Positions 1-52,700 of a DNA stretch of 64,000 nucleotides are shown here, piece after piece. Location: the NCBI GenBank assembly GCA_964489065.1, contig CAZAXH010000004.1, positions 15,181 to 79,180 on the forward strand, in the 5' to 3' direction. Below the pieces are notes generated by a model, which was not told the DNA's origin, made no database searches, and saw only the letters and a list, made by a program, of their open reading frames with translations. A program made the translations under genes and the position numbers. This DNA comes from an uncultured Planctomycetales bacterium (GTDB taxonomy: Bacteria > Omnitrophota > Gorgyraeia > Zapsychrales > JANLHA01). Each line of letters begins with the position of its first letter. Within the stretch, counting starts at the first letter, position 1.

Positions 1-221
1 GAATAATAAACATTCATTCCTTCCCGCCGGTCATTCACGATGCCTGTTAACCGCAAACGGCCCAAGTGTTTAGACAGGCTTGACTGGCTGACGTTCAAGA
101 TCAGGCACAGTTCACTCACGCTCATTTCTTGATGGCTTAATAAATTAATAACTCTCAAACGGGTGTCATCCGCAAATGATTGCAGGATTTGACGAACTTT
201 CTTAATACCCAAACAACTCAC
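1..221 (-). CDS. ArsR/SmtB-family HTH transcriptional regulator. Only the N-terminal part is inside the window. Translation from a GTG at 221 reads ...QILQSFADDTRLRVINLLSHQEMSVSELCLILNVSQSSLSKHLGRLRLTGIV...
   Basis: Manual reverse-strand translation shows the ArsR wHTH signature (ADxTRLRIL..L....ELCV..L......S.SxHL..L...G). A GGGAGGA RBS lies just upstream of the GTG. The gene runs off the window edge. Confidence 0.5.
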   Translation of the reverse strand, partial: MSCLGIKKVRQILQSFADDTRLRVINLLSHQEMSVSELCLILNVSQSSLSKHLGRLRLTGIVNDRREGMNVYY

Positions 222-508
222 TCCTCCCCGTTCCCAAAGACCTTTTCACCATATTCCCTTAAGGGAATATGCTACTAGGGCAAAATAACACTGTCAAGAT
301 TTTTCGCCCATTTATCCGCCTTCGCCGAAGACCACAGGCATACCTGCGGATAAAAACGAGCGTGGGACAAAATTTTCTACCTCGGGAATATTCATGCGTG
401 TGTTGAAAATCAGGCTGTCCCGGCCGTGACACAGGTTGTTATGAGGCCCCCTGGGGCTCCATATCCCCAATTGGCGCAATATGGCCGGGAAAGATATCCC
501 CCCGGCCT

Positions 509-733
509 TTACAGGATGCTGCCGAAGGGATTACGGGGGCCGACGTTGACTGCCCTTAAAAATGAAGGAAATTTCCGGGCCGGAATGATTATCTCCGTAA
601 CTTTTTCGCGGGTCACATCCTCAAAAATCATTTTAACGCCCACTTGTCCTTCATCATCAGAAAAATGCCTGACATAAAGACTATAACTGGAGCCGCAATC
701 ATCCCATTCAATCAATTCGTTAATTCTGGGCAA
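509..733 (-). CDS. Small hypothetical protein (74 aa)
   Basis: ORF only. No recognisable motif. Sits in an otherwise ORF-poor 1.1-kb leader region. Confidence 0.15.
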   Translation of the reverse strand: MPRINELIEWDDCGSSYSLYVRHFSDDEGQVGVKMIFEDVTREKVTEIIIPARKFPSFLRAVNVGPRNPFGSIL

Positions 734-1131
734 AGAAGTCTCCTTGTAAAAAGTTAAATAAAAAGCTGTCCGCGATTATAATATTCCTCCCCAGGGCTGT
801 CAAGACACAACGTGGAAATCGCACTCATCCCCGTCCTGTTTTTTCCTTCCCTCCCCTTTTTTTGTTTTACTTGACAAAATGCTAAACGTTGTTAAGATTG
901 ATTGAAAATATACAAGGATCCGCTATCCCGTGTCCCAGACTGAATATGTTTTTTCCAACCGCAGGTTGTGAGACCTACTCTGACAATCCGCAACGGGAAG
1001 AAAGAAACATGACAAGCGTTTAAGGTTTAGTTAACAATCTTAAAAAAGGATGTTGGCTTTGCCCTAAATGCTTTTTTTATTAAATAATTTTTAAATTTAA
1101 ACCCTTTATCAACCCATTTTAAAAGGAACCC

Positions 1132-3063
1132 ATGAGAGACACAGTAGACAGTCCCAGCGATCAACAAAAAGTTAAACCCCGCTTACAACCAGAGAAAAGG
1201 ACGTTCGGCCCGATCGATAATCTGGAAGCCCATGTATCATCGGACTGGTGGTGCCGCATCTTCAACGCCAATTATTTAAAGACCGATGCCGACGTCGTGG
1301 ATGATCCGTCCATTACTCGTGAGGAAATACAGCTTTTCCTCTCCTCCGTACAACTGCAAAAAGACCACCTTATACTTGACCTATGCTGCGGACAAGGGCG
1401 TCACTGCCTGGAACTGGCCAGGCAGGGATTTAAAAACATCTACGGCCTCGACCGCTCTCATTATCTCATCCAAAGGGCCCGTTTACAGACCAAACGGGAA
1501 GGGTTGAATATTAAATTCAAAGAAGGCGACGCCAGGAAACTTCCTTACCCTGCATGTAAATTCGACTGCGTGACCCTTCTGGGGAACAGTTTCGGGTATT
1601 TTGAAACCATTAATGACGACCTGCTGGTCTTAAAAGAAATTTTCCGGGTCATCAAGCCCTGGGGGAAAATCCTTATCGATGTTTCTGATGGAGACTATGT
1701 GCAAAAACATTTCAGCCCCCGGAGCTGGGAATGGATCGACAAAAAACATTTTGTCTGCCGGGAAAGATCTTTATCCATGGATAAACAGCGGCTCATCAGC
1801 CGGGAAGTCATCTCGCATGTGGAAAAAGGCGTGGTCGCCGACCAGTTTTACGCGGAACGGCTGTATTCCCGGGAGACATTATCCAACCTGCTGGAAAACG
1901 CGGGTTTTAAAGACATCCGCTTTGCCCAGGAGATTAAAACGCATTCCCAAAGAAACCAAGACCTAGGCATGATGGAACAGCGGGTCATTGTTACTGCGGT
2001 CGTCAAAAAAGAATGGACCCCTCCCTCGGTCGCTAAGAAGGGCGTTGCCCTAAAAAACGTAGCGGTCATCTTGGGGGACCCGCAGAAAACCGACACGCTT
2101 AAACCCTCATCGGTCTTCGATGATGACGATTTTTATACGATTGACCAAATGAAGTCTGTCCTCAACCGGCTGCCCTTGTACAAATTCACGTATTTTAACA
2201 ACCATGACAGCTTGATCAATGATCTCCTGAAAAACCGGGGTAAAATTGATCTGGTGTTTAACCTGTGTGATGAGGGCTTCAACAATATGGCCAGTAAGGA
2301 GTTACACGTCCCGGCCCTTCTGGAACTGTTAAACATCCCTTATACCGGAGCTGGCCCCCAGTGTCTGGCTCATTGTTATGACAAATCCCTGGTCAGAGGG
2401 ATCGCCAATGAAATGGGCATTATGGTGCCTCAGGCGTTCTTTATCAAAGCGGAGGACAATGTGTTTGACCTGTCCTTCCCGTTCCCCGTTCTAGTGAAAC
2501 CGAATTTCGGTGATTCCAGTCTTGGAATCACCCAAAATAGCGTGGCCTACAACATTGAAGAACTGGTTAACGCGATTCAGCAGATCCGTGATCAAATCGG
2601 TTTCGACAAACCTATTTTAGTCGAGGAATTCCTGGAAGGCGCGGATTTAAGCGTGGGAATCATCGGGAATCCGCCGGAATCCTACACAATACTCCCCATC
2701 ATTGAAGAAGATTATTCCCTCCTCCCGAAAGAACTTCCGAGGATTTGCGGGTATGAAGCAAAATGGTTGCCCCAATCCCCCTATGGAAAAATCCGGTCTA
2801 TCCCGGCCAATCTTTCGGATGAAGCAGAAAAATATATTGAAGCCTGCTGTTTAAAACTTTTCGAACGGCTGGAATGCCGGGACTACGCCCGGGTGGACTG
2901 GCGGCTGGATAAGGCAGGAAATCCAAAACTTCTGGAAGTCAACCCCAATCCCGGATGGTGCTGGGACGGCCACTTGGCCAAAATGGCAAAATTAGCAGAC
3001 ATCTCCTATGCCCGTATGCTGGAAGATATCCTAAAAGTCGCCAGCGAGCGGCTATGGAAGTAG
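1132..3063 (+). CDS. Fusion protein: N-terminal class I SAM-dependent methyltransferase plus C-terminal ATP-grasp ligase resembling D-Ala-D-Ala ligase
   Basis: Methyltransferase motif I (ILDLCCGQGRHCLELARQG) and post-I acidic residue (YGLDRS) in the N-terminal third. The C-terminal half has ATP-grasp hallmarks (PVLVKPNFGDSSLGI, VEEFLEGADLSVGIIGN, LLEVNPNPGW). RBS-like purine-rich leader before the ATG. Confidence 0.8.
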   Translation: MRDTVDSPSDQQKVKPRLQPEKRTFGPIDNLEAHVSSDWWCRIFNANYLKTDADVVDDPSITREEIQLFLSSVQLQKDHLILDLCCGQGRHCLELARQGFKNIYGLDRSHYLIQRARLQTKREGLNIKFKEGDARKLPYPACKFDCVTLLGNSFGYFETINDDLLVLKEIFRVIKPWGKILIDVSDGDYVQKHFSPRSWEWIDKKHFVCRERSLSMDKQRLISREVISHVEKGVVADQFYAERLYSRETLSNLLENAGFKDIRFAQEIKTHSQRNQDLGMMEQRVIVTAVVKKEWTPPSVAKKGVALKNVAVILGDPQKTDTLKPSSVFDDDDFYTIDQMKSVLNRLPLYKFTYFNNHDSLINDLLKNRGKIDLVFNLCDEGFNNMASKELHVPALLELLNIPYTGAGPQCLAHCYDKSLVRGIANEMGIMVPQAFFIKAEDNVFDLSFPFPVLVKPNFGDSSLGITQNSVAYNIEELVNAIQQIRDQIGFDKPILVEEFLEGADLSVGIIGNPPESYTILPIIEEDYSLLPKELPRICGYEAKWLPQSPYGKIRSIPANLSDEAEKYIEACCLKLFERLECRDYARVDWRLDKAGNPKLLEVNPNPGWCWDGHLAKMAKLADISYARMLEDILKVASERLWK

Positions 3064-3073
3064 AGAAGTCAGG

Positions 3074-3112
3074 AAAAAGGCAGCACTCTTTAATAAAAAG
3101 TACTGCCTTTTT
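3074..3112. terminator. Bidirectional intrinsic terminator between convergent genes
   Basis: AAAAAGGCAG-N19-CTGCCTTTTT. A 10-bp stem flanked by an A-run and a T-run. Lies between the stop at 3063 (+) and the stop at 3127 (-). Confidence 0.5.
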
Positions 3113-3126
3113 CCTGAAAACACTTG

Positions 3127-4530
3127 TTATTTCTTTTCCGGCTCTTTATCCTTTTTATCATCTTTAATAATAACAGTCGGTTTCTGCTTACCTCCCGCAT
3201 AATAAGGAGCAGGGGGTTCTTTTCCATCTGTCGTCTTGCCTAGGTACTCCGGCAATTGAACCCCGGCCATGCCCGCAATATCATGCAAAGCCGGTAATGA
3301 TTTAATCATGTTACTCACAAAATTCGCCGTCGAACTGCCCTTTTCCGCGTTCCCGCTGTCCCAAACGGTAATTTTATCGATCTTTAACTTCTGAATCGCT
3401 TCGGTCTGCAACTTCACGATCTCTTCCAGCTTCTCAACGAGAAGCATCGTCGCCGCATCTTTCGCGTTATCACCGCAAGAATTGACCAACTGATTATACC
3501 CTTCGGCCTTGGCATCAAGGACTTTCTGAATCCCTTCCGCCTCAGCCGACTTGACAGCGACAATCGCATCCGCCTGCCCGCGCGCCTCCCGGCGAACCCG
3601 CTCGGCTTCCGCTTCGGCCGATATTTCTATCTTCCGTTTCTCAATTTCCTTAACGACAATCTCTTCCGCCTCCAACCGCTTCGTTTCCGCAAGAGCCTTT
3701 GCCTTCTGGATTTCCGCGATAGAATTCTGACGGGCAACCTGCCCGCGGCGGTCCGCGTCCGCGGCCTTCTCCGCCAAATCCGCATTATAATTCGCTATGT
3801 TCGCCTGAGCAACATTCTCACCTTCAACAGCCTCCGAATTATACTTCGCGACCTGAATACGGCGCTCCCGTTGGGCCGCCGCGGCGCCGACATCCCCTTT
3901 TTTCTCCTGTTCCGCCACATCGATTTTAGCCTGGTTGATCGCCGTGGATGCGGCCTTTTTCCCGATGCTCTCGATATAACCTGACTCATCGGCGATATCG
4001 GTAATGTTAACGTTGATCAAGGTTAAACCGATCTTTCTCAACTCCGGCTCAATGTTATTCCGGATTGCCTGTAAAAATTTTTCCCGGTCTTGGTTAATGT
4101 CTTCAATCGTCAACGTGGCCACCGTGAGCCTCAACTGCCCGAAAATAATTTCCGTGGCCATCTTTTCGATTTCCTGCTGGCTCAATTCCAAAAGGCGGAC
4201 GGCCGCGTTATGCATGGCTTCGGTTGACGTGTCGATCGCAATCGTAAAAGTGCTGGGGACATTAATCCGAATATTCTGGAACGACAAAGCCCCTTTGAGC
4301 GGAATGCTGATTGTCATGGGTGTCAGGTCTAAAAATTTTGAATCCTGAATAAGGGGCCAGATAAAGGAGCCCCCACCGTGAAAACAGGTCACGGATTTCC
4401 CCTCGCCCACCTTTCCGTAAATCGCCAATATTTTATTGGATGGGCATCGTTTATAACAGCTGGCCAAAAACAGGATTAACGCGAACAAGAAAAAGACAAA
4501 AATCAAAACAGAAATCGCAAGTAGACTCAT
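3127..4530 (-). CDS. Flotillin-like SPFH/band-7 protein (YqiK/FloT type)
   Basis: N-terminal TM. SPFH core. Long Ala/Glu/Lys/Arg-rich coiled coil (AEQEKK...EAEAERVRREARGQADAIVAVKSAEAEGIQKV). AGGAGG RBS before the ATG. Confidence 0.85.
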   Translation of the reverse strand: MSLLAISVLIFVFFLFALILFLASCYKRCPSNKILAIYGKVGEGKSVTCFHGGGSFIWPLIQDSKFLDLTPMTISIPLKGALSFQNIRINVPSTFTIAIDTSTEAMHNAAVRLLELSQQEIEKMATEIIFGQLRLTVATLTIEDINQDREKFLQAIRNNIEPELRKIGLTLINVNITDIADESGYIESIGKKAASTAINQAKIDVAEQEKKGDVGAAAAQRERRIQVAKYNSEAVEGENVAQANIANYNADLAEKAADADRRGQVARQNSIAEIQKAKALAETKRLEAEEIVVKEIEKRKIEISAEAEAERVRREARGQADAIVAVKSAEAEGIQKVLDAKAEGYNQLVNSCGDNAKDAATMLLVEKLEEIVKLQTEAIQKLKIDKITVWDSGNAEKGSSTANFVSNMIKSLPALHDIAGMAGVQLPEYLGKTTDGKEPPAPYYAGGKQKPTVIIKDDKKDKEPEKK

Positions 4531-4544
4531 AGCCGACTCCTCCT

Positions 4545-5153
4545 TTATATTTTCTTTACCGCCACGGTTATTTGATCAACGACCCTGACAACTTCAACGG
4601 TCTGGAATGAATCGATCGCCTCTTTGTTCTCCGCGACCGCCTCGATTTCCCGGGTAATATCATTTAACACAACGTTAATCTTCCCCCGGCCGTCCACCGG
4701 AATCCTCTGATAAACAGCCCCCCGCTTCCCCACCACCTGGTCCACCGAGAAGACAGCCCCTTTACTGACGAGCTTCCTGGCGAGTTTGAAAAGATAGGCC
4801 GTTATCAGCATGCAGCCCACTCCACCCAGGAATCCGATGACCACAGAAAGGCCTCCGTTTAAAAGAAATTGTTTATGACACGTCAGGCCGATCCATCCGA
4901 ACATCATGAAAAAAGCCGTGATGGAGTTTATAGAAATGAACTCAAAATGCGTATCCGATACTGTCCCGTCATGGCCGGAGTGCCCCATGTCCACAGGCGC
5001 ATGGGTTCCTAAATCCGCGTCCACGCCGGTGTCCAATCCTCCGCCTATCACCATTAAAAAAACCCTTAAAATAAAAAAACCCGTGCCGGCAAGAGCACAG
5101 AACCAAAAAAGCGCCTCCAAAGAAGTGACTTGCTGAAAAAGGCCCCCGTCCAT
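4545..5153 (-). CDS. NfeD/YqiJ-like (DUF1449) membrane partner of the flotillin
   Basis: TM segments, a His-rich loop (GTHAPVDMGHSGHDG) and a C-terminal OB-like β-rich region. It is 15 nt upstream of the flotillin gene and co-oriented with it. Start chosen at MDGGLF with an AAGGAGGTG RBS; the ORF track extends 10 codons further 5'. Confidence 0.6.
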   Translation of the reverse strand: MDGGLFQQVTSLEALFWFCALAGTGFFILRVFLMVIGGGLDTGVDADLGTHAPVDMGHSGHDGTVSDTHFEFISINSITAFFMMFGWIGLTCHKQFLLNGGLSVVIGFLGGVGCMLITAYLFKLARKLVSKGAVFSVDQVVGKRGAVYQRIPVDGRGKINVVLNDITREIEAVAENKEAIDSFQTVEVVRVVDQITVAVKKI

Positions 5154-5316
5154 TGGACACCTCCTTTTAATTAGAAGACCCACGATAACAACCTGGCTAA
5201 ATTATAACAGACAGAAAAATCAGTGTCGATTATAAAACCGAACTGATTCTGTAACTAAACCTCCTTCCGCTGTAAAACAATGGCCGATCCGCCGTATATC
5301 CCCTCTATTGTCCGCT

Positions 5317-6948
5317 CTACTCGGACAACTTAACGATCACGCCGTTTTTACGCGCTTGCATAAAAGCGTGTTTCATAAATACCAACCCTATAACAAGATA
5401 AACAATAACTAACGTGAACCCCTTCCAAAGTACATGCCGGAGAACCGGCTCAAAGCCAAAACTTTGCCGAAAATATTCCAGGAAATATGTGATAGGGATG
5501 CCTTGCGCGCAATAGTAAAAAAATTTCGGCAATGTATTAATAGGATAATAAATCCCGCAGACCAGCATGAAAAGATACGCAAACATCCAGGCCGTTATTT
5601 CCGCTTTCTGGCCAAAACAAAGCAGAAGATAACACACAAGTGTTCCCAAAAGAAGCGCAGAGCCGAAGATCCCCAACAAAAAGATCCCGGTCACGGATAA
5701 AGACGGGAAGTGGAATCCGAAAAAACCCATGGCAGCACAGCCCAAGATCCCGAAAATAATCACTCCTCTGACAATGCCGATCACCCAGGACCCGAAAAGA
5801 TGCTCGCTGATCCCCACCGGCGTCAGGAAGGTGTGCTTTAAACTTTTGGCCCACACCTCATACAAGAGGCTGTAGGCGACATCCAACTGTGTGACCTGTA
5901 AAATGCCCGCAGTCATTGCGCCCGTGATAATAAAAGCGAGCGCCCGTTCTTCCATCTGCAGAAAATCCCCCATAAGCCCGATCGAGATCAAGCTGACGAT
6001 CGGCCAGAACACCAGTTCCATAAAAGCAAAAAAATTCCTGATCGCGTAAAGCATATTCCGGTACGTAAACGCAAAACAGCTGTTCAACCACTTGGTCGCA
6101 TCCCCGGCAAGCGGGCGCGGTCCAGCGCGTATTTCCCGCCGGCTCAAGACTTCGGTCGCCTCCGGCTGCGGCGGGGAGGCCGTGATCGGCTCTGCTATCT
6201 TGCCGGCCAGGTCAATAAAAACATCTTCCAAATCCTTCTTGCCCTGCCGTGCCTTTAATTCATCCGGAGTCGCCAGCCGGATAAGGCGCCCCTCTTTGAG
6301 AAAGGCAATCCGCTGGCACATCTTTTCCGCTTCCGGCATATAATGAGTTGTCAGCAAAATCGTCGCGCCCGTCTTCTCATAAATATCCAAAATCAGCCGG
6401 CGGATTTTAACCGCCACATCCGGATCAAACCCTACAGTCGGCTCATCAAGAAAAATAATCTTAGGGTCGTTGATCAGGCACTTGGCCAAGGCGAGCTTCT
6501 GCTTGGTCCCGCTGGAGAGTTCGTCAAAACGAAGCCGCGCGGCCTGTCCCAGTCCAAACATGTCAATCAGGGACGCCACGCGCTGTTTTAAAATTTTCCC
6601 CTTAAGGTTATACAACCGGCCGTAAAAAAACAAATTTTCTTCCAGGGTTAAACTCCAGGGGAAATTGGGGTGCCCGGAACACATATTAAAACTCTGCCGC
6701 AATTCGGAATAATGGGCCGGAACCAGTTGTTTTTCCAGCATCGTGACCGTTCCGCTGTCGGGCAAAAGCAAGGTGGAAAGGATGTTTAACAACGTCGTCT
6801 TGCCCGCGCCATTCGGCCCCAGGACCCCTAAAATTTCCCCCTCCCGGATATCCAGGGAAACATGATCCAGAGCTTTAATGCGCACATGTTTTCCCGCCTG
6901 AGAAACAAATGTCTTGCTGATATTGTTAACGGAAATCAACGTTTTCAT
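5317..6948 (-). CDS. Fused ABC transporter: N-terminal ATPase plus C-terminal ABC-2-type permease
   Basis: Walker A (GPNGAGKTT). ABC signature (LSSGTKQKLALA). Walker B (IIFLDEP). The C-terminal half has about 6 TM helices of ABC-2 permease type. Confidence 0.85.
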   Translation of the reverse strand: MKTLISVNNISKTFVSQAGKHVRIKALDHVSLDIREGEILGVLGPNGAGKTTLLNILSTLLLPDSGTVTMLEKQLVPAHYSELRQSFNMCSGHPNFPWSLTLEENLFFYGRLYNLKGKILKQRVASLIDMFGLGQAARLRFDELSSGTKQKLALAKCLINDPKIIFLDEPTVGFDPDVAVKIRRLILDIYEKTGATILLTTHYMPEAEKMCQRIAFLKEGRLIRLATPDELKARQGKKDLEDVFIDLAGKIAEPITASPPQPEATEVLSRREIRAGPRPLAGDATKWLNSCFAFTYRNMLYAIRNFFAFMELVFWPIVSLISIGLMGDFLQMEERALAFIITGAMTAGILQVTQLDVAYSLLYEVWAKSLKHTFLTPVGISEHLFGSWVIGIVRGVIIFGILGCAAMGFFGFHFPSLSVTGIFLLGIFGSALLLGTLVCYLLLCFGQKAEITAWMFAYLFMLVCGIYYPINTLPKFFYYCAQGIPITYFLEYFRQSFGFEPVLRHVLWKGFTLVIVYLVIGLVFMKHAFMQARKNGVIVKLSE

Positions 6949-7009
6949 AAATATAGGAACTGATCCCGCAGGCAGGGCTTCCGGAAATTTTGGAAAAGCA
7001 TCCCCGCTC

Positions 7010-7966
7010 CTATCCGAATAACGGACCGGCCAAAATTTTCCGGCTTATATCAAGGGCCGACTTCAAAACATATTCCGCGGCTTTTTGATTTGTAAAATAC
7101 CCGGATGTCCGGGTTGTCTTCTGCCTTATAACAAGCACAACCACATCCTGGGCCGATTTTAACTCAAGCGTAATATTCCGGGGGGCGTCTTTTATAAGAG
7201 GGTCGACTTTGTCAAAAAATTTATGAGATTTGCCTATCAAAACACAATATAAATAAGGATAATCCCGGCCTTCCACGTTATTAATGGAAATCTGCACCTG
7301 CAACCCCAGGCACTCTGCCGGCGCGGGGATAAACCTTAACATCAACCGGGCGTCCGTGGGCACGCGTTTCCCGTCTTTCGTCGGCTGGGTTGCCAGCATG
7401 GGCAGGACATGCACATCGCTCGGGGAGGATAAAAACCGCATCATCTGTTCCAGGAGTTTAATCTTAATAATAAGCTGATCTTTTTTAAGATAACTCCGCA
7501 CCCCCGTGACCCAATGAGGGGCGAAAAGGACAAACGTGTCCCAGGCCCAGAACTTAGCCAGCCGTTCCTGCCCGGCCCCCATCAGGTCAACCCAGATAAA
7601 AAGCCCAACCCCCGCGCAAACGGCTGCACAGCAAAACCCCAAAGGATTGGTGATATCAAAACAATCCTGATCCCATTTCTTCAACTGCTTCTGCTTCAAC
7701 TGTACTTTTTGATATTCATCCGGGGTGACCTGATTCCATTCCTCCGGCCCGTTCGACTTCGGGTGGGCGGAATACCCTTTAATAAGCGAGAGGGCCGTGG
7801 CCGCCGCCAGGAGAAACAATCCCCCCCAGAACTCAATCATCAGTTGCACCAGAAGCCCGATGGCGAGCAGGGCTAAAATCAGGATCAACCGGCCATGATA
7901 AGGCATCCTCTTGGCGAACAGGAAATGGATCTCCCCCCGTCTTTGCGCATCAGGCAGCCAGGTCAT
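7010..7966 (-). CDS. Integral membrane protein of unknown function. Operon member, with an ATGA overlap onto the rSAM stop.
   Basis: Several hydrophobic helices in the N-terminal half. No recognisable catalytic motif. A 4-nt overlap with the upstream gene implies translational coupling. Confidence 0.5.
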   Translation of the reverse strand: MTWLPDAQRRGEIHFLFAKRMPYHGRLILILALLAIGLLVQLMIEFWGGLFLLAAATALSLIKGYSAHPKSNGPEEWNQVTPDEYQKVQLKQKQLKKWDQDCFDITNPLGFCCAAVCAGVGLFIWVDLMGAGQERLAKFWAWDTFVLFAPHWVTGVRSYLKKDQLIIKIKLLEQMMRFLSSPSDVHVLPMLATQPTKDGKRVPTDARLMLRFIPAPAECLGLQVQISINNVEGRDYPYLYCVLIGKSHKFFDKVDPLIKDAPRNITLELKSAQDVVVLVIRQKTTRTSGYFTNQKAAEYVLKSALDISRKILAGPLFG

Positions 7967-9294
7967 GCACCCACCTCCACCGGTTTATGCTGCAGAAGCT
8001 CCGCATACCCGACCTGCCGCCAGTACAGCGGGCAGCCGCCGTTGCAGACGGCTAGGTCTTCACACGCCTGGCATTGCTCGTGAGCGAAACGTTTGCGCTG
8101 AAAATATTGAAAAGCCGGGCCGGCCCACAACTCCCGGAAACGGCCCTGCCTATCCAGAATATTTCCCATAGGCAGAGGGAAACTGGAACACGGCAGGATA
8201 TCCCCATTCGGGGCGATGCTAAGCAACCCGTCACAGGCCGCGCATCCCCGGTTCCCCAAGCCATGCACAATCGGATTAAAAATGCATAACGGCGTGGGGG
8301 AATACCACATAAATTCCAGCCCCTGCGCGACAGCTTCGCGCTGAATATCCAAAACAACCGGGCCGATATCGGAATACCGGACCAGCACCTCTCCCAAATG
8401 CGCGGCCGCCGACCCTTCGGGCATAAGCAAGTTCATAGAAAATTTATTAAAGCCCTCCTCACGCACCAAGGCCAGAACCGCGTTCAAATGATCTTTGTTC
8501 AGGGCAGAAATAGTTGTGTTGGTGTGCACCCGGATCTTCGCGTCCCGCAAGGCTCTCAACCCAACCAGGGTCTTCGCAAAGGCCCCAGGAGAACGGACAA
8601 TCCGGTCATGCAGGCGCGCGTCCGCGGCCTCCAGGCTGACCTGGGCGGAATCCAGCCCCGCGGCTTTTAAAGTGGCCGCCAAGGCGGGCGTGACCAACGT
8701 CCCATTGGTAATGAGATTCGTCCACATTTTTAACGACTTGGCGAACCGTACCAGTTCTGGCAAATCCGGCCGGAGCGTGGGTTCCCCACCGGTAAAGCTG
8801 ACGGACGGCACTTCGGCCTCTTCCCGGATCACGATCAACACACGTTTCAGCTGATCAAGCGAGCATTCCTCCGCCCGGGTATCCTTGCGGCAACCGCACC
8901 CCGCATAGCAAAACTGGCAGGCCAGGTTGCACCGGTACGTGACCGCGATCTCGCTTAAAACCGGCAGGGTGTTAAACGGAAGTTTGAAAGGATACCGCTC
9001 GACCGCTTTACGGCCGTCCCGTTCATGATAACAGCCTTTAAAGAGCGCCATGATATCACAAAAAAAATAATGCAGGTCCCGGGCGACCCCCTCTTTATCC
9101 GGATACCGGTCCACGACCGTATAAATACTGTTTCCCCCCAAAAGTGTTTTCAAAACAGACACTCCCGAAGCGTTGATTTTATGCGCCTCGTTGGGAATCT
9201 TGATGAGCAAGTGATCATGCTCCCGCACGTGGATATACGGAGAAACCCGTTTGATATATTCGTCAACCCACCGGATGTTGGCATAATATTCCAT
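7963..9294 (-). CDS. Radical SAM enzyme with C-terminal SPASM domain and about 120-aa N-terminal extension (maturase-like)
   Basis: CNLACQFCYAG (CxxxCxxC). C-terminal Cys cluster (CAACDGLL...ILPCS...CQACEDLAVCNGGCP), typical of a SPASM/twitch auxiliary Fe-S domain. Start reassigned to MEYYANIRW, with a GGAG RBS 11 nt after the stop of the upstream gene. The ORF-track start at 9411 would overlap the upstream coding repeat. Confidence 0.85.
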   Translation of the reverse strand: MEYYANIRWVDEYIKRVSPYIHVREHDHLLIKIPNEAHKINASGVSVLKTLLGGNSIYTVVDRYPDKEGVARDLHYFFCDIMALFKGCYHERDGRKAVERYPFKLPFNTLPVLSEIAVTYRCNLACQFCYAGCGCRKDTRAEECSLDQLKRVLIVIREEAEVPSVSFTGGEPTLRPDLPELVRFAKSLKMWTNLITNGTLVTPALAATLKAAGLDSAQVSLEAADARLHDRIVRSPGAFAKTLVGLRALRDAKIRVHTNTTISALNKDHLNAVLALVREEGFNKFSMNLLMPEGSAAAHLGEVLVRYSDIGPVVLDIQREAVAQGLEFMWYSPTPLCIFNPIVHGLGNRGCAACDGLLSIAPNGDILPCSSFPLPMGNILDRQGRFRELWAGPAFQYFQRKRFAHEQCQACEDLAVCNGGCPLYWRQVGYAELLQHKPVEVGA

Positions 9295-9305
9295 GGCAGA
9301 CTCCG

Positions 9306-10988
9306 TTAATGCCCGCTGCTCACGCATGCCCCATGACAGGCCCCGTGGCAGGCGGAATGACACGCGGAATGGCAGGCGGAATGACACGCAGAATGGCACG
9401 CGTCGTGGCAAACATTCTGCAAAAACGGCCCTTCATAACAAAGCGAGGAATTCCGGAAAGAGGAAAACCCTTCCTTGACCTGGGGCGCGCTCACCTCAAG
9501 CGCCCGTCCGACGTCCTGGCTCCGGCGGTAATAATCCCGGTCATGATAATACATCCGGCCGTAATAATGGTGATAATATCCGTCCCAATAATACCCGGCA
9601 TCCGTTTCCTGTTGGGGGTTTTGTTTCTCCTGTTGCAGGATGGCGTCCATACGCTGTTTGTAATACGCTTTTGTGGCGTCCACATCGCAATCCCAGATTT
9701 TTTGCTCAAGCCCCGCGGCCATGGTATGGAAAAGGTCATTGATAAATCCCTGCGGGATATTCCCGGACATATCAATCGCGTTTAAAATATTATTTTCATA
9801 AGGGTCATCCCCACCCGCCGCGCCTGAAACCCGCTCGACCTTCAGCGGATCATGGCTGATCATCTTAAGGAGGCCTTTGCGTTCAAGATTCTGGATCATC
9901 AAGCCGGCCAATGTCCCCAAAGGGATATCCAGCAGAAGCCCTGCCTCCAACGCCGTCAGGTCCTTGTTGATTTTCCCGTCCTTGCGGAACGACCCCACCT
10001 GAATTTTCGGAGGCACCCATTCGTCCCCATCCCAACGGATCGGAGCGATGCCGTCCTGAGCCGATAGCATGGACACATGCTTTCTCGTCATCATTAAAAA
10101 CGGAAAAAGAAAAAAGACAACGCCTCCGAACAGCAGCAGCCCCACCAGACCGCCGGCGGAAAGCGGCACCACCGCCAGGACACTCCCGGGGAAGTACCGG
10201 TTGAAAATATAATTTTCTTCTGCCTTCCGGAATCCGGGGGTATCCGCCCAGGGTTGGGGAGCAGCCATGGTCGTGAGATTAAAATATTTCGCGTCGAGAT
10301 ACGTCTGAATCTGAAAATGATACCGTGAGGGCAAATCATCACGGTGAAAGCGGACCGTGAACACCGGATTCCCTTGCGCGTTGGTCGCCGCCGGATAATC
10401 GATCTTATAGCGCTGATTGACATACTTTTCGGTCAAAAAGTTAACGGCGGACAGGTCCTGGGGGGAAACTTCAGGCGTGTTCATAACGACAGGGTAATGA
10501 ACGGTTACCGTTTCATGCTCCAGGGCGTCACTCCACTGAACCGGGGCCCAGTTAAAAACCGCTAACCGGCCGTGCGGGCTTTCGGTCAGGACGACATGGC
10601 CGCTCTCCTGTAAATCAGTTTCATAATTAAAACGGTAGGTAATCTCTCCGTCATGAAAAGCCTGCCCTCCCGCCAACACGATATCATATTTAGTCGACGA
10701 CAAGTATGTAATATCAAGGGAATACTGCGTGCCGTTCTCGTCAACGGCGTGCGCGTCCAGATCATTGAACCGGGGCACCCCGGCAAAACCTTCAAAATAA
10801 AACCCATGCAGGTCAGCCGCCCGGCAGGCCCAACGGACCGCATAGGAAACCCGGGCTTTCCCATCCGGGTCCAAGACCACATCCACCTCAACCCAGCGCA
10901 TTTTAAATGACCCGCACCAGGCTGGAGCAGCCAGGCTGATGAGAAATATCAGCGTTATGAGGGGAAAAATTGTCTTTTTCTTAAACAT
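9306..10988 (-). CDS. DUF2207-like membrane protein with a C-terminal Tyr/His-rich segment and a (C-H-x-A)x7 repeat tail
   Basis: Signal peptide. About 250-aa extracytoplasmic domain. TM (VLAVVPLSAGGLVGLLLFGGVVFFLFPFLMM). A C-terminal cytoplasmic region ending YYWDGYYHHYYGRMYYHDRDYY...CHDACHSACHSACHSACHSACHGACHGACVSSGH. Confidence 0.7.
   Translation of the reverse strand: MFKKKTIFPLITLIFLISLAAPAWCGSFKMRWVEVDVVLDPDGKARVSYAVRWACRAADLHGFYFEGFAGVPRFNDLDAHAVDENGTQYSLDITYLSSTKYDIVLAGGQAFHDGEITYRFNYETDLQESGHVVLTESPHGRLAVFNWAPVQWSDALEHETVTVHYPVVMNTPEVSPQDLSAVNFLTEKYVNQRYKIDYPAATNAQGNPVFTVRFHRDDLPSRYHFQIQTYLDAKYFNLTTMAAPQPWADTPGFRKAEENYIFNRYFPGSVLAVVPLSAGGLVGLLLFGGVVFFLFPFLMMTRKHVSMLSAQDGIAPIRWDGDEWVPPKIQVGSFRKDGKINKDLTALEAGLLLDIPLGTLAGLMIQNLERKGLLKMISHDPLKVERVSGAAGGDDPYENNILNAIDMSGNIPQGFINDLFHTMAAGLEQKIWDCDVDATKAYYKQRMDAILQQEKQNPQQETDAGYYWDGYYHHYYGRMYYHDRDYYRRSQDVGRALEVSAPQVKEGFSSFRNSSLCYEGPFLQNVCHDACHSACHSACHSACHSACHGACHGACVSSGH
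9318..9404. repeat. 12-nt tandem repeat (about 7 units, consensus aatgRcaSgcRg on the + strand) encoding the CHxA repeats
   Basis: Seen directly: ...aatgacacgcgg aatggcaggcgg aatgacacgcag aatggcacgcgt... Confidence 0.8.
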
Positions 10989-11130
10989 AAAAATTTATAA
11001 GGGGATAATAGTAAAAATCATTATAATAACTCTTCTGCCGGGTGTCCAGAATCCAAATATAAATTAATGTCTATCAAAAGACAAAAAATAACGGGTCTGA
11101 AGTGTCTCCGGGAACCGCTTCTATTATTTT

Positions 11131-11159
11131 TTGCATTATCCAGGTTCGTTGTTATAATG
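11131..11159 (+). promoter_or_regulatory. Sigma70-like promoter for the + strand operon (TTGCAT-17-TATAAT)
   Basis: TTGCAT at 11131-11136 and TATAAT at 11154-11159 with a 17-nt spacer, about 35 nt upstream of the 11191 ATG in an AT-rich divergent intergenic region. Confidence 0.5.
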
Positions 11160-11190
11160 TGTTTTATTATTAAACTTTAAGGAAACCACC

Positions 11191-12837
11191 ATGCGGATTA
11201 CTTTTGTAGCTCTTGGCTGGGAGCAACTCAGCATTTCCATGCTGACCGCCCTAGCGAAACTCGACGGACATGAAGTGAGCCTTGCGTTCAGTCCCGGATT
11301 GTTCCATGACCGCTATAATCTGCGTGTCCCGTTTTTAGCCGCCATCTTCGATGACCGGACCCGGGTCTTAAAAACAATCGCCCAACAAAAGCCGGATGTC
11401 CTAGCCTTTTCAGCGATGACCGGGACCTATCAGTGGCTGCTGGGAATCGCGCGAGACGCCAAACGCCTGAACCCGAACGTCAAAGTCCTGTTCGGAGGCG
11501 TGCACGCCTCCGCCGTTCCGGACCGGGTCCTTCAACAAAAACCGGTCGATTTTGTTTGCGTCGGGGAGGGAGATATGGCTTTCCGGCTTATTTTGCAGGC
11601 TATCGCCCGCAAAAATTTTTCCGACCCGATCCCCAACACACGCTACAAAACGCCCGACGGAACGATTATCCGTGGCGCACAAACCGGTTTTATCCAGGAT
11701 TTAGACAGCCTCCCGGGCTTTGACAAATCCCTCTGGGAAGACCATATCCGTCTGGGAGACATTTATTTCACCATGGCTTCCCGGGGCTGCCCGTTCCGCT
11801 GCACCTACTGTTTTAATAGTTTCTTCAGTCAATTAGGCGGGCCCGACAAGACAAAATATGTCCGCCAGCGCAGCGCCGGACACATGTTAGAGGAACTGCG
11901 TTACGCCCGCCGGAGATATCATTTGCGGTTGGTCGAATTTGAAGACGACATTTTCACGTTTAACAAAAAATGGCTGAAAGACTTTCTGGACCAGTATAAA
12001 AAGGAGATCGGGATTCCTTTTCAATGCCTCTCCCACCCTTCCTTTATGGATGACGACGTTATCCGGTGGCTTTCCGAAGCCGGCTGCCGGTTTGTCCAAA
12101 TGGGGATCCAAAGCGCGGACGAAGACTTCAAAAACCGGATGATCAAGCGTTACGAAAAGACCCGGCATATTGAGCGTGTCATGCAAACAATGCGTAAATA
12201 TCATGTTGAACTGAAAGTCGACCACATGTTTGGGCTTCCGGAAGAACCCGTGTCAGCCCAGGAAAGCGCCCGGGAGCTCTATGCCAGAATCCCGCCCTAC
12301 CGGATTCAGACATTCTGGATGAATTACTTCCCGGGCACCGAAATGACAGAATACGCCCTGACAAACGGGCTCCTGTCTCCAAAAGAGGTCGAAAATCTTA
12401 AGGACGGAAATCAGCCTGATTTCTACCGCAACAGTTCGAGGGTCATGGCCCCGGAAAACCGAAAGCTCTACGCCGCCTATGAAACCATATTCAAACTTCT
12501 GCCGATTGTTCCCCCCGCCCTCAGGGAACACCTCCTGGCCCGATCCTTCCGGGAACTCCCCAAATTCCTGAATTCCTGGATCAGTTTTATGGCCGATGTT
12601 GTCAGCGGGTTATGGAGAAGAAATCCTGATCATATCGGTTACGCGAAATACTATCTTTATCATATGACCCGGTTTATCCTGGCAAAATGCGGGCGCACAA
12701 TGCCCCCGGCCACCCGGACGCGCGGGCACGAACGTTCTTTCCCCCGCCTCCGGCAAAACTCAAATCCAGTTCCAGTCCGGGGGGGCGAGCAAGCTGTTTC
12801 TTCGGAACCGGCCCTTATTTTCCGCAAAGGGAATTAA
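11191..12837 (+). CDS. B12-binding (class B) radical SAM enzyme
   Basis: N-terminal cobalamin-binding Rossmann-like region. Radical SAM core with ASRGCPFRCTYCFNS (CxxxCxxC). About 550 aa, typical for class B rSAM methyltransferase-like enzymes. Confidence 0.8.
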   Translation: MRITFVALGWEQLSISMLTALAKLDGHEVSLAFSPGLFHDRYNLRVPFLAAIFDDRTRVLKTIAQQKPDVLAFSAMTGTYQWLLGIARDAKRLNPNVKVLFGGVHASAVPDRVLQQKPVDFVCVGEGDMAFRLILQAIARKNFSDPIPNTRYKTPDGTIIRGAQTGFIQDLDSLPGFDKSLWEDHIRLGDIYFTMASRGCPFRCTYCFNSFFSQLGGPDKTKYVRQRSAGHMLEELRYARRRYHLRLVEFEDDIFTFNKKWLKDFLDQYKKEIGIPFQCLSHPSFMDDDVIRWLSEAGCRFVQMGIQSADEDFKNRMIKRYEKTRHIERVMQTMRKYHVELKVDHMFGLPEEPVSAQESARELYARIPPYRIQTFWMNYFPGTEMTEYALTNGLLSPKEVENLKDGNQPDFYRNSSRVMAPENRKLYAAYETIFKLLPIVPPALREHLLARSFRELPKFLNSWISFMADVVSGLWRRNPDHIGYAKYYLYHMTRFILAKCGRTMPPATRTRGHERSFPRLRQNSNPVPVRGGEQAVSSEPALIFRKGN

Positions 12838-49701: not shown

Positions 49702-52700
49702 TTATGGATGCCTGGGAACGGTCACCGTGGCTGCGGCGGTCGCACTGTTCCCGGAGACGTCCGTGGCAGAGTAAAGAAGCGTATAAATCCGGCCATTCGA
49801 CGACCCTTGCCGCTCAGCGCGCAAATAAATCTGGCCGTTCGCATCAACCCGAATGTCGGCTGTCGTATCCCCATCCGGCACCCCGGCATCATAATTAGGA
49901 TCATAGGTGTTGATTTGATCGCCTTCGTTCATAGTAATAGACGTTAACCTCACCAGAGGACCGGGATCGCAGGTATCCGCGGCCGTAACGACTGGCGTTA
50001 TCTTGACCATTTTATGATTTGGCGGCCACAAAACAGCGAGGTTCACGCTCACACTGATCTGTGGCGGGGTGGTGTCCCGGACAGTCACCTGCCCTGTTTG
50101 GGAATCGGCTGCGCCCATGGGATCTTCCACCGTCAAAGAAAAAGAATAAACACCCAAAGGAAGCGTGACGGTTTGGGTGACACCGGACAGATTCCCCCAA
50201 GGCCCGGACCAGAGATACGTTAAAGGATCTCCGTCCTCATCCGTAGACGCTGAACCATCCAGTACAACCGCACAGCCCTGCGGCCCGGTGCATTCCACGA
50301 CCCAATCCGAACCGGGCTGCGATTGAGGGGCATGGTTCAAAACCTCGGTCGTCCCGGCAGCCACTGCAATCTGCCGCCCCCGGAATGTCAGGACAACCGT
50401 CCTCGTCCCGTTGTTAATCAATGTTAATGTATCCGGATAAAAAATAATCTTATCCCCGGTTTCCAGCACGGCCGCGGCCACATCCCCGGAAAGCGCGTTC
50501 AATTCCACGTTCACAGGACCGCTTACGATATCCGCGCCGATACTGCCGCAGGTCACGACAACTTCGTCTCCGGGAGATAAAAATATATTCCCCGCCTCCG
50601 AACAGGCCGTCACTTCCGCCTGTACAGCGCCGCCGCTTGCATCGACCTTGATTCTGACCCCTGCTAAAGGATCAAAATCATCAACGATGGTCAGAACCTG
50701 ATCCCCCCGGCTCAGGATCTCGCCGTACGTGGCAGGATCGCTATGGTCATTAAAACTATTGGAATACCCGGTCACGTCACCGTCAACGGCGTCGGACAGC
50801 CCGTCGCCGTCATAATCAATCCGGTCAAGACTTCCGGTCACGGCATTGATTAACGAAACATTGGCGACATGATGCAGGGCCGTGTCATACTTGGACAGTT
50901 TCCGTTCCAGGTCAGCCTGGCTGTCCTCGTCGAAATTGGGCAGAGTCTCATCATAGAGAAAATGATTATATAAGCCCCAATTGTTCGGGTAACTGTGTAC
51001 TTTGTAGGACCACAACGACCAGCTCCAGCCTTCGGCATTGAAACGGCTCAAATAATACTCCCAAGCGTCCTTGATTCCGAACGCGTTAAATTCACCGACT
51101 AAAACAGGGACGTCATAATCTTCCTGGTAAACCTGTGAATCCGACACCTTCTGGTCAACAAACGCCTTATGATAGTCTATAACGTCAGTAAATGTCAGAT
51201 TAGGAATAAGTTCAGAATATTCTTCTGGGTTATACGCAGGGCAGGTCTCACCCAAGACAGGAAGCAGAAGTTCCCCGGTTGCCTCATTTCTATTTTCCCA
51301 ACAATAATAATGAAACTGGTACATCACGTTTTCCCAACTCATATCTTCCGGCTTGGGCAAAGAATCCCAATCCCAGGCGCCTTCCATGACGATGAGATGA
51401 TCCTCATCACCCACGGTATCGCGGATTTCCTGATAGATATCATCATAAAGGGCGTGCAGCAAAGCGAGACCGCCCACATAATCTTCAAATCCGGTCGGCT
51501 CATTTAAAAGATCATAGCCAAGCACTGCCGGATTATCCTTATAATGATCAGCGATCTTATTCCACAGTTCTACCGTCCGGTCCCGGTAAGCGCTCACCGC
51601 CGGATTAAATAACTGATGGAAATATCCGGGTTCCGGCGGTTCCACCGATTCCCGCCCGGTATGAAACTCCCGGCTCTGGCTTCCCGGAGCGCCGTGCAGA
51701 TCCAGAAGCACATAAATCCCGCGGTCCGCGCAGGCGTTCACGATTTCGTCAATCTTACTGAAATCAAAATTACCGCCGCAGGCCCAATTACCGCTTTCAT
51801 CCAGGTCGCAGATATTCCGGTAATAGAGCGGCAGTCGGACGTAATTGAACCCCATCCGCAGAATATTATCAAAGTCGCTTTCCTGAATATATGCGTCCTG
51901 ATAAACATTCAAAATATTTTGGGCCTCGGCACCTAAATATTCCCGAATGGTCCAGTCGTCAAAATACTTGCCTCCCTCCGGCTCATCCAGATGTTTTTCA
52001 AACTCCGGGCCCTTGCCCAACATCCAGGATTCAAGGAGCAGGTAATTGCCCAAGTTTACCCCTTTGAGTTGCACCACATCCCCGGCGCCATTCTGTTCCC
52101 GGAGATGAAGCCCCGCCGCCCGCACAAAGCCTTGCGGGTCATACAACAACGCCGGGCTCCACGCGCCGCTGTCAACCTCACCCACCGCGCGCACGCGGTA
52201 CCATTTACCGATGTCGGAACCCGACAAAGTTAACGTGGTCTGCGGCCCGCTGTAAATCTGCGTCCAGCCGCCGTCACGGCTGGCCCCTTCTTCCACCACA
52301 TAGGAAACCGCCAGCGGCTGGGCCGTCCATTCTACATACCCTTCCTGCAAGCGGGCATATTTAATCAGCGCCGGTTTAGCGAAATACTGAACCGCCTCGC
52401 TCCAATCAGACTCCACCAAGACAACCCCGTCGATTTCATTGGGGATGCCCCAGCGTACCCGCAGCCAGGAACTCTCCAGTTCCTGAAGCGCGACGCTCGT
52501 TTCCGTGCCGGAATAAATCGTTGTCCACGGCCCCTCTGACCCCGCAGCGCTCTGCTGCAGCGTGTAATGCGCACCGTCTAGATATTTATTCCAGGAAGCC
52601 ACCCCTTCCGGAAGCGCGGCCTGATTGATCGTCACCTCCGGCAACGCCGTGGCCCGGATGTCATCAAAGTAATACGTCCCCGGCCAAAAAATCTGAAGCT

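Follow-up and report, generated by a model that had tools for sequence, protein, structure and literature searches.

The gene at positions 1132..3063 on the forward strand of a 64,000-nucleotide stretch of an uncultured bacterial genome (GTDB lineage Omnitrophota; assembly GCA_964489065.1, contig CAZAXH010000004.1; the whole stretch is called the window here) encodes a single polypeptide in which an S-adenosylmethionine (SAM)-dependent methyltransferase is fused to an ATP-grasp ligase with the complete fold of the D-alanine--D-alanine ligases (Ddl). Both halves retain their catalytic residues, and the architecture is conserved across Bacteria, Archaea and a few eukaryotes. The chemistry of each half is well supported and the coupled ligation and N-methylation of one small molecule is a plausible function; we judge the chances to be about even that the ligase builds an aminoacyl-amide or dipeptide whose free amine the methyltransferase N-methylates, in what would be a bifunctional small-molecule enzyme. 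The substrates, the sharing of a substrate between the halves, which step comes first and what the enzyme does for the cell are what we infer.

The open reading frame (ORF) starts with ATG, 8 nt downstream of a Shine-Dalgarno-like AAGGA site, and spans 643 amino acids in the ORF list of the window. All of the motifs named in a first-pass annotation of this DNA were found where expected in the protein: ILDLCCGQG at residues 81-89, PVLVKPNFGDSSLGI at 452-466, VEEFLEG at 497-503 and LEVNPNPG at 601-608. The Pfam families Methyltransf_25, Methyltransf_11, Methyltransf_31 and Methyltransf_23 match residues 75-261 (E-values 7e-20 to 4e-14) and Dala_Dala_lig_C matches residues 448-634 (E-value 2.5e-26), all above gathering scores. 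An AlphaFold2 model computed from a 60-sequence alignment of diverse members (a shallow alignment gave a predicted local distance difference test score, pLDDT, of 64 and was discarded) has a mean pLDDT of 91.6 and contains two compact modules, residues 26-293 and 308-642, with values mostly >90 across the methyltransferase module and disorder (pLDDT <50) at residues 297-303 between them. Two modules had been proposed in the first-pass annotation and both are present, at spans wider than the limits of about 60-250 and 330-640 that were given there. The predicted template modelling score (pTM) of only 0.57 leaves the relative orientation of the modules undefined. The features of the gene are as follows.

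1132..3063, forward strand: ORF of the bifunctional SAM methyltransferase/ATP-grasp ligase, 643 residues (ORF, Pfam, NCBIfam, PDB and protein homologues)
1207..2010, forward strand: methyltransferase module, residues 26-293, with N-terminal helices (PDWWR-IFN-YLKTD-DVVDD), Rossmann core and beta-strand cap
1372..1398, forward strand: SAM-binding motif I, ILDLCCGQG, residues 81-89 (D83, G87 and G89 >=98% identical in 283 members)
1702..1926, forward strand: cap subdomain, predicted to bind substrate, residues 191-265 (conservation and AlphaFold2 model)
2020..2061, forward strand: variable, disordered linker between the modules, residues 297-310 (conservation and pLDDT)
2053..3057, forward strand: ATP-grasp ligase module with the complete three-subdomain Ddl fold, residues 308-642 (Foldseek, hhalign)
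2260..2277, forward strand: clade hallmark NLCDEG, residues 377-382, standing where Ddl has its LHGxxGEDG loop, close to the first-substrate site
2749..2766, forward strand: omega-loop motif GYEAKW, residues 540-545, with the catalytic Lys retained and Ddl Tyr216 replaced by Trp545
2932..2973, forward strand: LEVNPNPG-WCWDGH, residues 601-614, with the Mg ligands E602 and N604 and, after them, a segment specific to the clade

The fusion is a widespread family. In a collection of 5.8 billion proteins the best 120 homologues are all 631-724 residues long, carry both domain sets and match the query at 65-95% identity over 96-100% of its length. A scan of one genome per GTDB species revealed a relative in at least 593 species, and the 80 loci kept from that scan are all near-full-length matches with 62-69% identity; among 80 metagenome loci retrieved with patterns of the ligase clade, 76 are fusions. 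The homology search suggested in the first-pass annotation thus returned a conserved fusion, and the prospect raised there of homologues that are always split and unlinked is contradicted by the full-length proteins in these sets. An artefact of assembly or frameshift, or a chance fusion unique to this contig, has next to no probability, given that the same uninterrupted ORF occurs in hundreds of independent assemblies and sources, with the linker region reading through in frame between conserved flanking residues.

The carriers are mostly uncultured anaerobic bacteria and archaea, plus a few eukaryotes. The bacterial carriers span dozens of phyla and groups, among them Planctomycetota, Atribacterota, Omnitrophota, Sumerlaeota, Spirochaetota, Chloroflexota, Desulfobacterota, Thermotogota, Chlamydiae, Bacteroidales and Nitrospira, and the archaeal carriers comprise, among others, Asgard archaea (Jord-, Odin-, Wukong-, Hod- and Promethearchaeota) and Methanosarcinales (Methanococcoides, Methanomethylovorans and Methanolobus), as well as Nitrososphaeria. 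Some labels of metagenome-assembled genomes may reflect binning errors, but the presence of the fusion in archaea stands because it occurs in several independent lineages and on long contigs (e.g., 316 kb in Methanococcoides and 154 kb in Odinarchaeota). More distant versions of the fusion, whose ligase halves are 42-47% identical, were seen in two chytrid fungi and, on a 1.3-Mb scaffold, in Monosiga brevicollis. No full-length match was found on 72,556 plasmids or 50,697 phages.

Conservation extends over nearly the whole protein. In the alignment of 283 members, 146 positions are >=98% identical, including the SAM motifs and the catalytic set of the ligase, and both halves are equally constrained, with a mean top-residue frequency of 0.76-0.85. 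Only the N-terminal tail (residues 1-25) and the linker (residues 297-310) are variable, the linker being the least conserved stretch apart from the tail. Proteins with one phylum label share a median of 74% identity, those from different phyla 70%, and archaeal and bacterial ones 69%; in no more than 34 of 53 cases does the nearest neighbour have a matching phylum label. Judged from these identities, the family sits on a conservation floor that is nearly independent of taxonomy, which implies very strong purifying selection together with lateral spread. Two members (P0080 and P0116) have the N-terminal 'KPPQR...PDWWR-IFN-YLKTD' segment twice in tandem before the methyltransferase core (alignment columns 1-100); in the remaining members the tail varies and is basic.

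Neither fold is new, and the sequences are already public under generic or misleading names, in databases either as 'D-alanine--D-alanine ligase' or as 'methyltransferase domain-containing protein'. Literature searches turned up no description of the fusion family, none of the NCBIfam family models is matched above its cut-off, and Pfam recognizes generic domains only. We regard the fusion as a bifunctional ATP-grasp enzyme, probably of the capped-dipeptide type, that falls outside Ddl, NmbA, Ngg and RimK/TTL.

The closest solved structure to the methyltransferase half is NmbA (PDB 9RI2), with an E-value of 6.4e-25 over residues 73-263, compared to 2.8e-12 for the next methyltransferase. Over the 185 aligned residues, which take in the Rossmann core and the beta-strand cap, identity is 33.5% (core 40%, cap 26%), and the two proteins have in common the SFGYFE motif and, by eye, two cap arginines (R212 and R243). 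Further matches in core and cap are the glycine/sarcosine N-methyltransferase and daptide N-methyltransferase models of NCBIfam, both far below cut-offs, and CypM and GNMT in the PDB; like NmbA, these are amine N-methyltransferases. The SAM motifs are intact, with D83, G87, G89, D107 and N152 near-invariant among the 283 members, and the cap contains a second near-invariant set (W199, E200, W201, R210, E211, R212, R224, E225, R243 and Y245). Conserved arginines in the substrate cleft of NmbA were noted by its authors, who describe the enzyme as the bacillithiol N-methyltransferase, acting on the cysteinyl amine of bacillithiol, an aminoacyl-amide (PMC12719100).

This likeness to NmbA raises the possibility of a variant route to N-methyl-bacillithiol or a related low-molecular-weight thiol, in which the ligase would replace BshC and the methyltransferase would be an NmbA orthologue. 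Bacillithiol, as an aminoacyl-amide methylated on its free Cys amine, would suit an enzyme that ligates and then methylates, and NmbA is after all the nearest structure. We nonetheless consider this route very unlikely. Homologues of NmbA were defined by 35-95% identity for network analysis, and orthologues by similar length and >80% coverage (PMC12719100), and the fusion falls below that identity floor and has 643 residues as opposed to the 266 of NmbA. NmbA is a standalone protein of bacillithiol producers, whereas many carriers of the fusion are archaeal or eukaryotic, domains that are reported to have no BshA, BshB or BshC (PMC12719100). In the flanks of 86 fusion loci, taken up to 10 kb, genes for BshA, BshB and BshC do not recur, nor does a glycosyltransferase or deacetylase partner. 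Because of the identity below 35%, the different architecture and the reported absence of bacillithiol genes from archaea and eukaryotes, the methyltransferase half is, by these comparisons, not an NmbA orthologue; it shares with NmbA the class I SAM fold, the cap and the intact SAM motifs.

The ligase half has the complete three-subdomain fold of the Ddl family (DdlB, VanA and D-Ala-D-Lac ligases; EC 6.3.2.4 and relatives). All of the top 50 PDB neighbours returned by Foldseek are Ddl, VanA or D-Ala-D-Lac ligases (target-normalised template-modelling scores of 0.80-0.83 over ~340 columns), and hhalign matches the half to E. coli DdlB (reference sequence identical to 1IOV/2DLN) with a probability of 99.8%. 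DdlB residues K97, K144, S150, E180, K215, R255, D257, E270 and N272 correspond to K418, K456, S462, E498, K544, R587, D589, E602 and N604, such that all ATP, Mg and catalytic residues are retained, most of them >=98% identical in 283 members. Because of this retention, the acyl-phosphate, amide-forming chemistry of the Ddl family is very likely shared by the fusion. The residues that give Ddl its specificity for D-Ala (Glu15, Tyr216 and Ser281/Leu282) are not found: the D-Ala2-binding Ser281/Leu282 segment (MTSHSL) is an invariant WCWDGH in the fusion clade, the omega-loop region exceeds that of DdlB by 11 residues, and the hhalign alignment starts only at DdlB residue 66, leaving the N-terminal subdomain with Glu15 not alignable. 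D332 or D333 may be the counterpart of Glu15 by secondary-structure register alone. The fusion is ~21-24% identical to Ddl proteins, and it scores 122.5 bits with the NCBIfam model NF002378 (cut-off 243) and 121.3 bits with TIGR01205 (cut-off 245.65), with all Van and Ddl equivalog models likewise far below their cut-offs. On sequence grounds, the half is not a Ddl and its substrate pocket would differ, which disposes of the ordinary Ddl that the first-pass annotation had entertained for the C-terminus. Standalone relatives of 340-370 residues and 35-58% identity carry the same hallmark motifs, and because they share them the half belongs to a distinct ATP-grasp clade, of which the fusion is the dominant form.

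A role in the cell wall, either as a D-Ala-D-X ligase for a methylated peptidoglycan precursor or as an ordinary Ddl with an irrelevant extra domain, would draw on the Ddl fold and catalytic residues, on the D-alanine--D-alanine ligase name given by some database sources, and on one standalone member of the clade (P0134, 50% identical) that occupies the usual ddl slot after murD-ftsW-murG (locus L088, 4025-12969). The subfamily scores at about half of the cut-offs and the altered D-Ala pocket speak against it, as do the carriers themselves, which include Asgard archaea, Methanosarcinales, a choanoflagellate and chytrids. To our knowledge, archaea and eukaryotes lack murein. Additionally, no mur or dcw genes were found among the neighbours of the fusion in the 86 loci. 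The modified cell-wall precursor suggested in the first-pass annotation is therefore disfavoured, and we regard any such role as highly improbable.

The function that we favour, ligation coupled to N-methylation, would proceed in two steps. The Ddl-type ligase would activate an amino acid by phosphorylating its carboxylate and would join the resulting acyl phosphate to another amino acid, through the amine of the latter, or to some other amine, giving a dipeptide or aminoacyl-amide with a free amino group, which the NmbA/GNMT-type methyltransferase would N-methylate one or more times; the reverse order, with methylation before ligation, is also possible. The modules would behave as separate rigid bodies on a flexible linker of ~14 residues, coupled by proximity and not by a fixed tunnel. 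Common cellular precursors would go into the product, an N-methylated, dipeptide-like metabolite, and for that reason partner genes would not be needed; as to its role, the leading guesses are a compatible solute or a metabolite that serves anaerobes in protection or redox. Coupling is plausible because both halves are equally constrained with their catalytic residues kept, because the methyltransferase resembles amine N-methyltransferases such as NmbA, because the ligase has a complete Ddl fold, and because rare standalone ligases of the clade adjoin methyltransferase genes (L089, L091 and L092). It should be noted that these adjoining methyltransferases belong to two unrelated folds, SET in L092, class I and SET in L089, and class I in L091. 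A distant plasmid relative in Thioflavicoccus, located in a diamino-acid small-molecule cluster, also favours this function.

If the two activities were instead independent, acting on unrelated substrates and fused just for co-expression or stability, the flexible, variable linker and the low pTM, with no support for a fixed interface, would be readily accommodated. Such an arrangement is difficult to reconcile with a fusion that has been kept with hardly any change in at least 593 species and in all three domains of life, that is the dominant form of its clade, whose lone ligase relatives tend to adjoin a methyltransferase gene, and in which both halves are held to the same level of constraint; we consider it quite unlikely.

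Several observations weigh against a coupled small-molecule enzyme. The first-substrate subdomain of the ligase is not alignable to Ddl by sequence, so that an amino acid as substrate is itself something we infer, and the pTM of 0.57 gives no support for a defined inter-module interface. Identity of ~70% across phyla and domains is unusual for an accessory enzyme of small-molecule metabolism and would better fit a universal macromolecular substrate. Some ligases of the clade neighbour SET genes, SET domains being protein lysine methyltransferases, and fusions of relatives to leucine-rich repeats (LRR) or prolyl oligopeptidase are a hint of peptide or protein substrates. One lineage of Planctomycetota has the gene in a ribosomal operon, in translational coupling with trmD. 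Finally, the surroundings of the gene offer no transporter, regulator or riboswitch as a sign of a metabolite pathway (86 loci for neighbouring genes; the window and 19 loci for Rfam).

These points bear on the main rival, a modifier of proteins or peptides. In this scenario a conserved protein, possibly a translation component present in all three domains, would receive an amino acid from the ATP-grasp half, in the manner of RimK, TTL and LysX, and the methyltransferase would act on the added residue or on a nearby amine. As ATP-grasp amide ligases, RimK, TTL and LysX would offer an explanation both for the extreme, nearly taxonomy-independent conservation in Bacteria, Archaea and Eukarya and for the sole recurrent arrangement of the fusion gene, ffh-rpsP-trmD-[fusion]...rplS in Planctomycetota, where the fusion start overlaps the trmD stop. 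The relatives linked or fused to SET domains, LRR repeats and prolyl oligopeptidase, the lack of metabolite-pathway partners in the 86 loci, and the presence of CypM, a peptide N-terminal methyltransferase, among the PDB matches all point in the same direction. Conversely, neither by sequence nor by structure are RimK, TTL and LysX the nearest relatives of the fusion: the top 50 structural neighbours of the ligase half are all Ddl-type small-molecule ligases without a single RimK, TTL or LysX chain, the Pfam TTL model scores the fusion protein at 13.7 bits against a cut-off of 20.1, and RimK has no Pfam match. The nearest relatives of the methyltransferase act on small molecules, the trmD linkage is restricted to one lineage (14 of 86 loci at the most), and variants involving SET, LRR or a peptidase are uncommon side branches, one SET 'fusion' being on a seemingly frameshifted contig. 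On balance we consider a protein-modifying role unlikely.

A functional parallel to a ligate-and-methylate enzyme is found in Ngg, which was reportedly placed in the pathway for the osmolyte N-acetylglutaminylglutamine amide (NAGGN) by Sagot et al. in 2010. The ATP-grasp domain of Ngg presumably belongs to a different clade from the ligase of the fusion. In both systems a single polypeptide would modify the N-terminus of an amino acid and form a peptide bond, yielding a capped dipeptide from common amino acids; Ngg performs N-acetylation and peptide-bond formation on glutamine for NAGGN (PMC8070244). The cap in Ngg is an acetyl group from a GNAT domain, whereas that of the fusion would be a methyl group from a class I methyltransferase, and Ngg works with the adjacent asnO, unlike the fusion, which has no conserved neighbour in 86 loci. 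With these differences, the logic of the fusion resembles that of Ngg and would also parallel the order of BshC, then NmbA, toward N-methyl-bacillithiol. Further parallels are GshF, in which a Ddl-like ATP-grasp domain fused to another enzyme completes a small protective peptide, and anserine, for which an ATP-grasp dipeptide synthase (carnosine synthase) is followed by an N-methyltransferase, a separate protein that methylates the imidazole ring. GshF and carnosine synthase differ in partner domains and substrates, and the likeness is one of description.

The genomic setting of the fusion is that of a solitary gene. Clustering of ORFs from the 86 loci found no broadly shared neighbour, and PADLOC returned a generic methyltransferase match only and no defence system. 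In one lineage (L002-L005, ~5350-7750), a DUF202 protein and a 676-residue amino-acid permease lie directly upstream of the fusion on the same strand, a pair that is possibly a substrate-uptake link in that lineage only. In the window, the upstream neighbour is a divergent 74-residue ORF (509..733, reverse strand) and the downstream neighbour is a convergent Band_7 gene; these orientations, together with a hairpin directly after the stop codon, bear out the first-pass description of a monocistronic gene with its own terminator. The transcription signals are as follows.

871..898, forward strand: predicted sigma-70-like promoter, TTGACA, 16 nt, TG-TAAGAT (consensus match 10/12, extended -10 TG)
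1014..1078, forward strand: attenuator-like leader hairpin at 1014-1073 (-23.9 kcal/mol), followed by a run of seven T (fold)
3065..3121, both strands: bidirectional intrinsic terminator hairpin that separates the fusion gene from the convergent Band_7 gene (fold, z = -5.8)

The terminator hairpin is 57 nt long, with a folding energy of -31.2 kcal/mol and a z-score of -5.8 relative to shuffled sequence. What had been described in the first-pass annotation as a 400-nt leader is really a 398-nt divergent-promoter region without an Rfam family, in which the sigma-70-like site would produce a 5' untranslated region of ~230 nt. That site is invariant in the close relatives L086 and L087, where the leader hairpin is also kept with few base changes in its stems. 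The leader hairpin ends ~55 nt before the start codon, with a second stem-loop upstream of it, and with its T-run looks like a transcription attenuator or an unclassified riboregulator; its conservation is confined to close relatives, as it was not found 5' of the gene in other phyla. At permissive thresholds, Rfam gave no match to the leader in window positions 1-3600, only spurious microRNA-hairpin matches at the terminator on both strands, and nothing reached Rfam gathering scores in 19 loci from diverse phyla. A leader peptide was considered for a 25-codon ORF in the leader, read by eye, and was rejected as not conserved in L087. The divergent 74-residue ORF has a promoter-like site of its own at 803->775 with the perfect TTGACA-17-TATAAT consensus, and in L087 an ORF of the same size and position is called at 427..651 (reverse strand).

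The non-canonical relatives are informative but few. In L092 (6276-9125), the standalone ligase is the last of an overlapping run with an FGE-sulfatase-domain protein (464 residues) and a minimal SET protein of 121 residues; it is a database singleton whose nearest relatives are fusions. The FGE-sulfatase domain is, as we understand it, also present in the sulfoxide synthases EgtB and OvoA, and the gene hints at thio-amino-acid chemistry. L091 has a standalone ligase with an adjoining class I methyltransferase gene, and L089 has a probably frameshifted methyltransferase-ligase followed by a SET gene; the 'SET fusion' P0133 was treated with caution, since its contig name suggests a nanopore assembly and its gene calls are fragmented. 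In L088, P0134 is followed by a 458-residue protein without a Pfam match and an 807-residue protein with two ATP-grasp domains, and this run may be a non-canonical cell-wall peptide pathway. One further standalone ligase adjoins Na+/H+ exchanger and trehalose genes, the only hint of an osmotic role like that of the Ngg product. The LRR and ligase architecture occurs in Lokiarchaeia, and the combination with prolyl oligopeptidase in Monosiga, under a locus tag next in number to that of the Monosiga fusion. Distant relatives on plasmids (~30% identity) are located in diamino-acid clusters or beside a CapA gene. One such cluster, on the Thioflavicoccus mobilis plasmid pTHIMO01 (L176, 3500-8981), places a diaminobutyrate transaminase, SbnA, an SbnB-like cyclodeaminase and the Ddl-like ATP-grasp protein on one strand, with a convergent KamA-family aminomutase gene at its end, and looks like a plasmid-borne route to a peptide of diamino or beta-amino acids.

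Other features of the window were recorded alongside the fusion. Convergent with it, at 3127-5183 (reverse strand), is a flotillin-like SPFH/Band_7 protein of 467 residues followed by a 212-residue membrane protein without a Pfam match in the usual NfeD position, a pair that is kept in L086 and L087. The region 5317-12837 encodes a fused ATP-binding cassette (ABC) ATPase/ABC-2 permease, two proteins without a Pfam match (318 and 560 residues), a radical SAM/SPASM protein and a divergent B12-binding radical SAM protein; this gene order is also found in L086 and is a possible peptide-maturation cluster, akin to those for RiPPs, peptides that are made on the ribosome and modified afterwards. The 1962-residue protein encoded at 49702-55590 (reverse strand) has FG-GAP repeats together with a lectin-like Laminin_G_3 domain and a cellulase domain of family GH5, and is probably a large glycan-degrading protein of the cell surface. 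GC skew is negative in every 2-kb bin of positions 1-64000 (-0.05 to -0.25; cumulative -4.6) without a change of sign, which places the whole window on one replichore with a C-rich forward strand.

Taken together, an enzyme of ~640 residues has stayed ~70% identical in lineages as far apart as Thermotogota, Planctomycetota, Asgard archaea and methanogens. With somewhat less than even confidence, we propose that the fusion makes either an undescribed N-methylated dipeptide or aminoacyl-amide, serving as a compatible solute or in a protective or redox function, or an aminoacylation-plus-methylation mark on a universally conserved protein. The label 'D-alanine--D-alanine ligase' is misleading, above all in archaea, where it can be read as a sign of peptidoglycan synthesis. 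As the gene is solitary, a one-gene experiment could settle its function. The enzyme would also be a compact ligate-and-methylate catalyst, and if its product is a new metabolite, common to hundreds of mostly uncultured anaerobic lineages, including Asgard archaea and methylotrophic methanogens, and to a few eukaryotes, that product would represent a widespread, overlooked part of the physiology of subsurface anaerobes.

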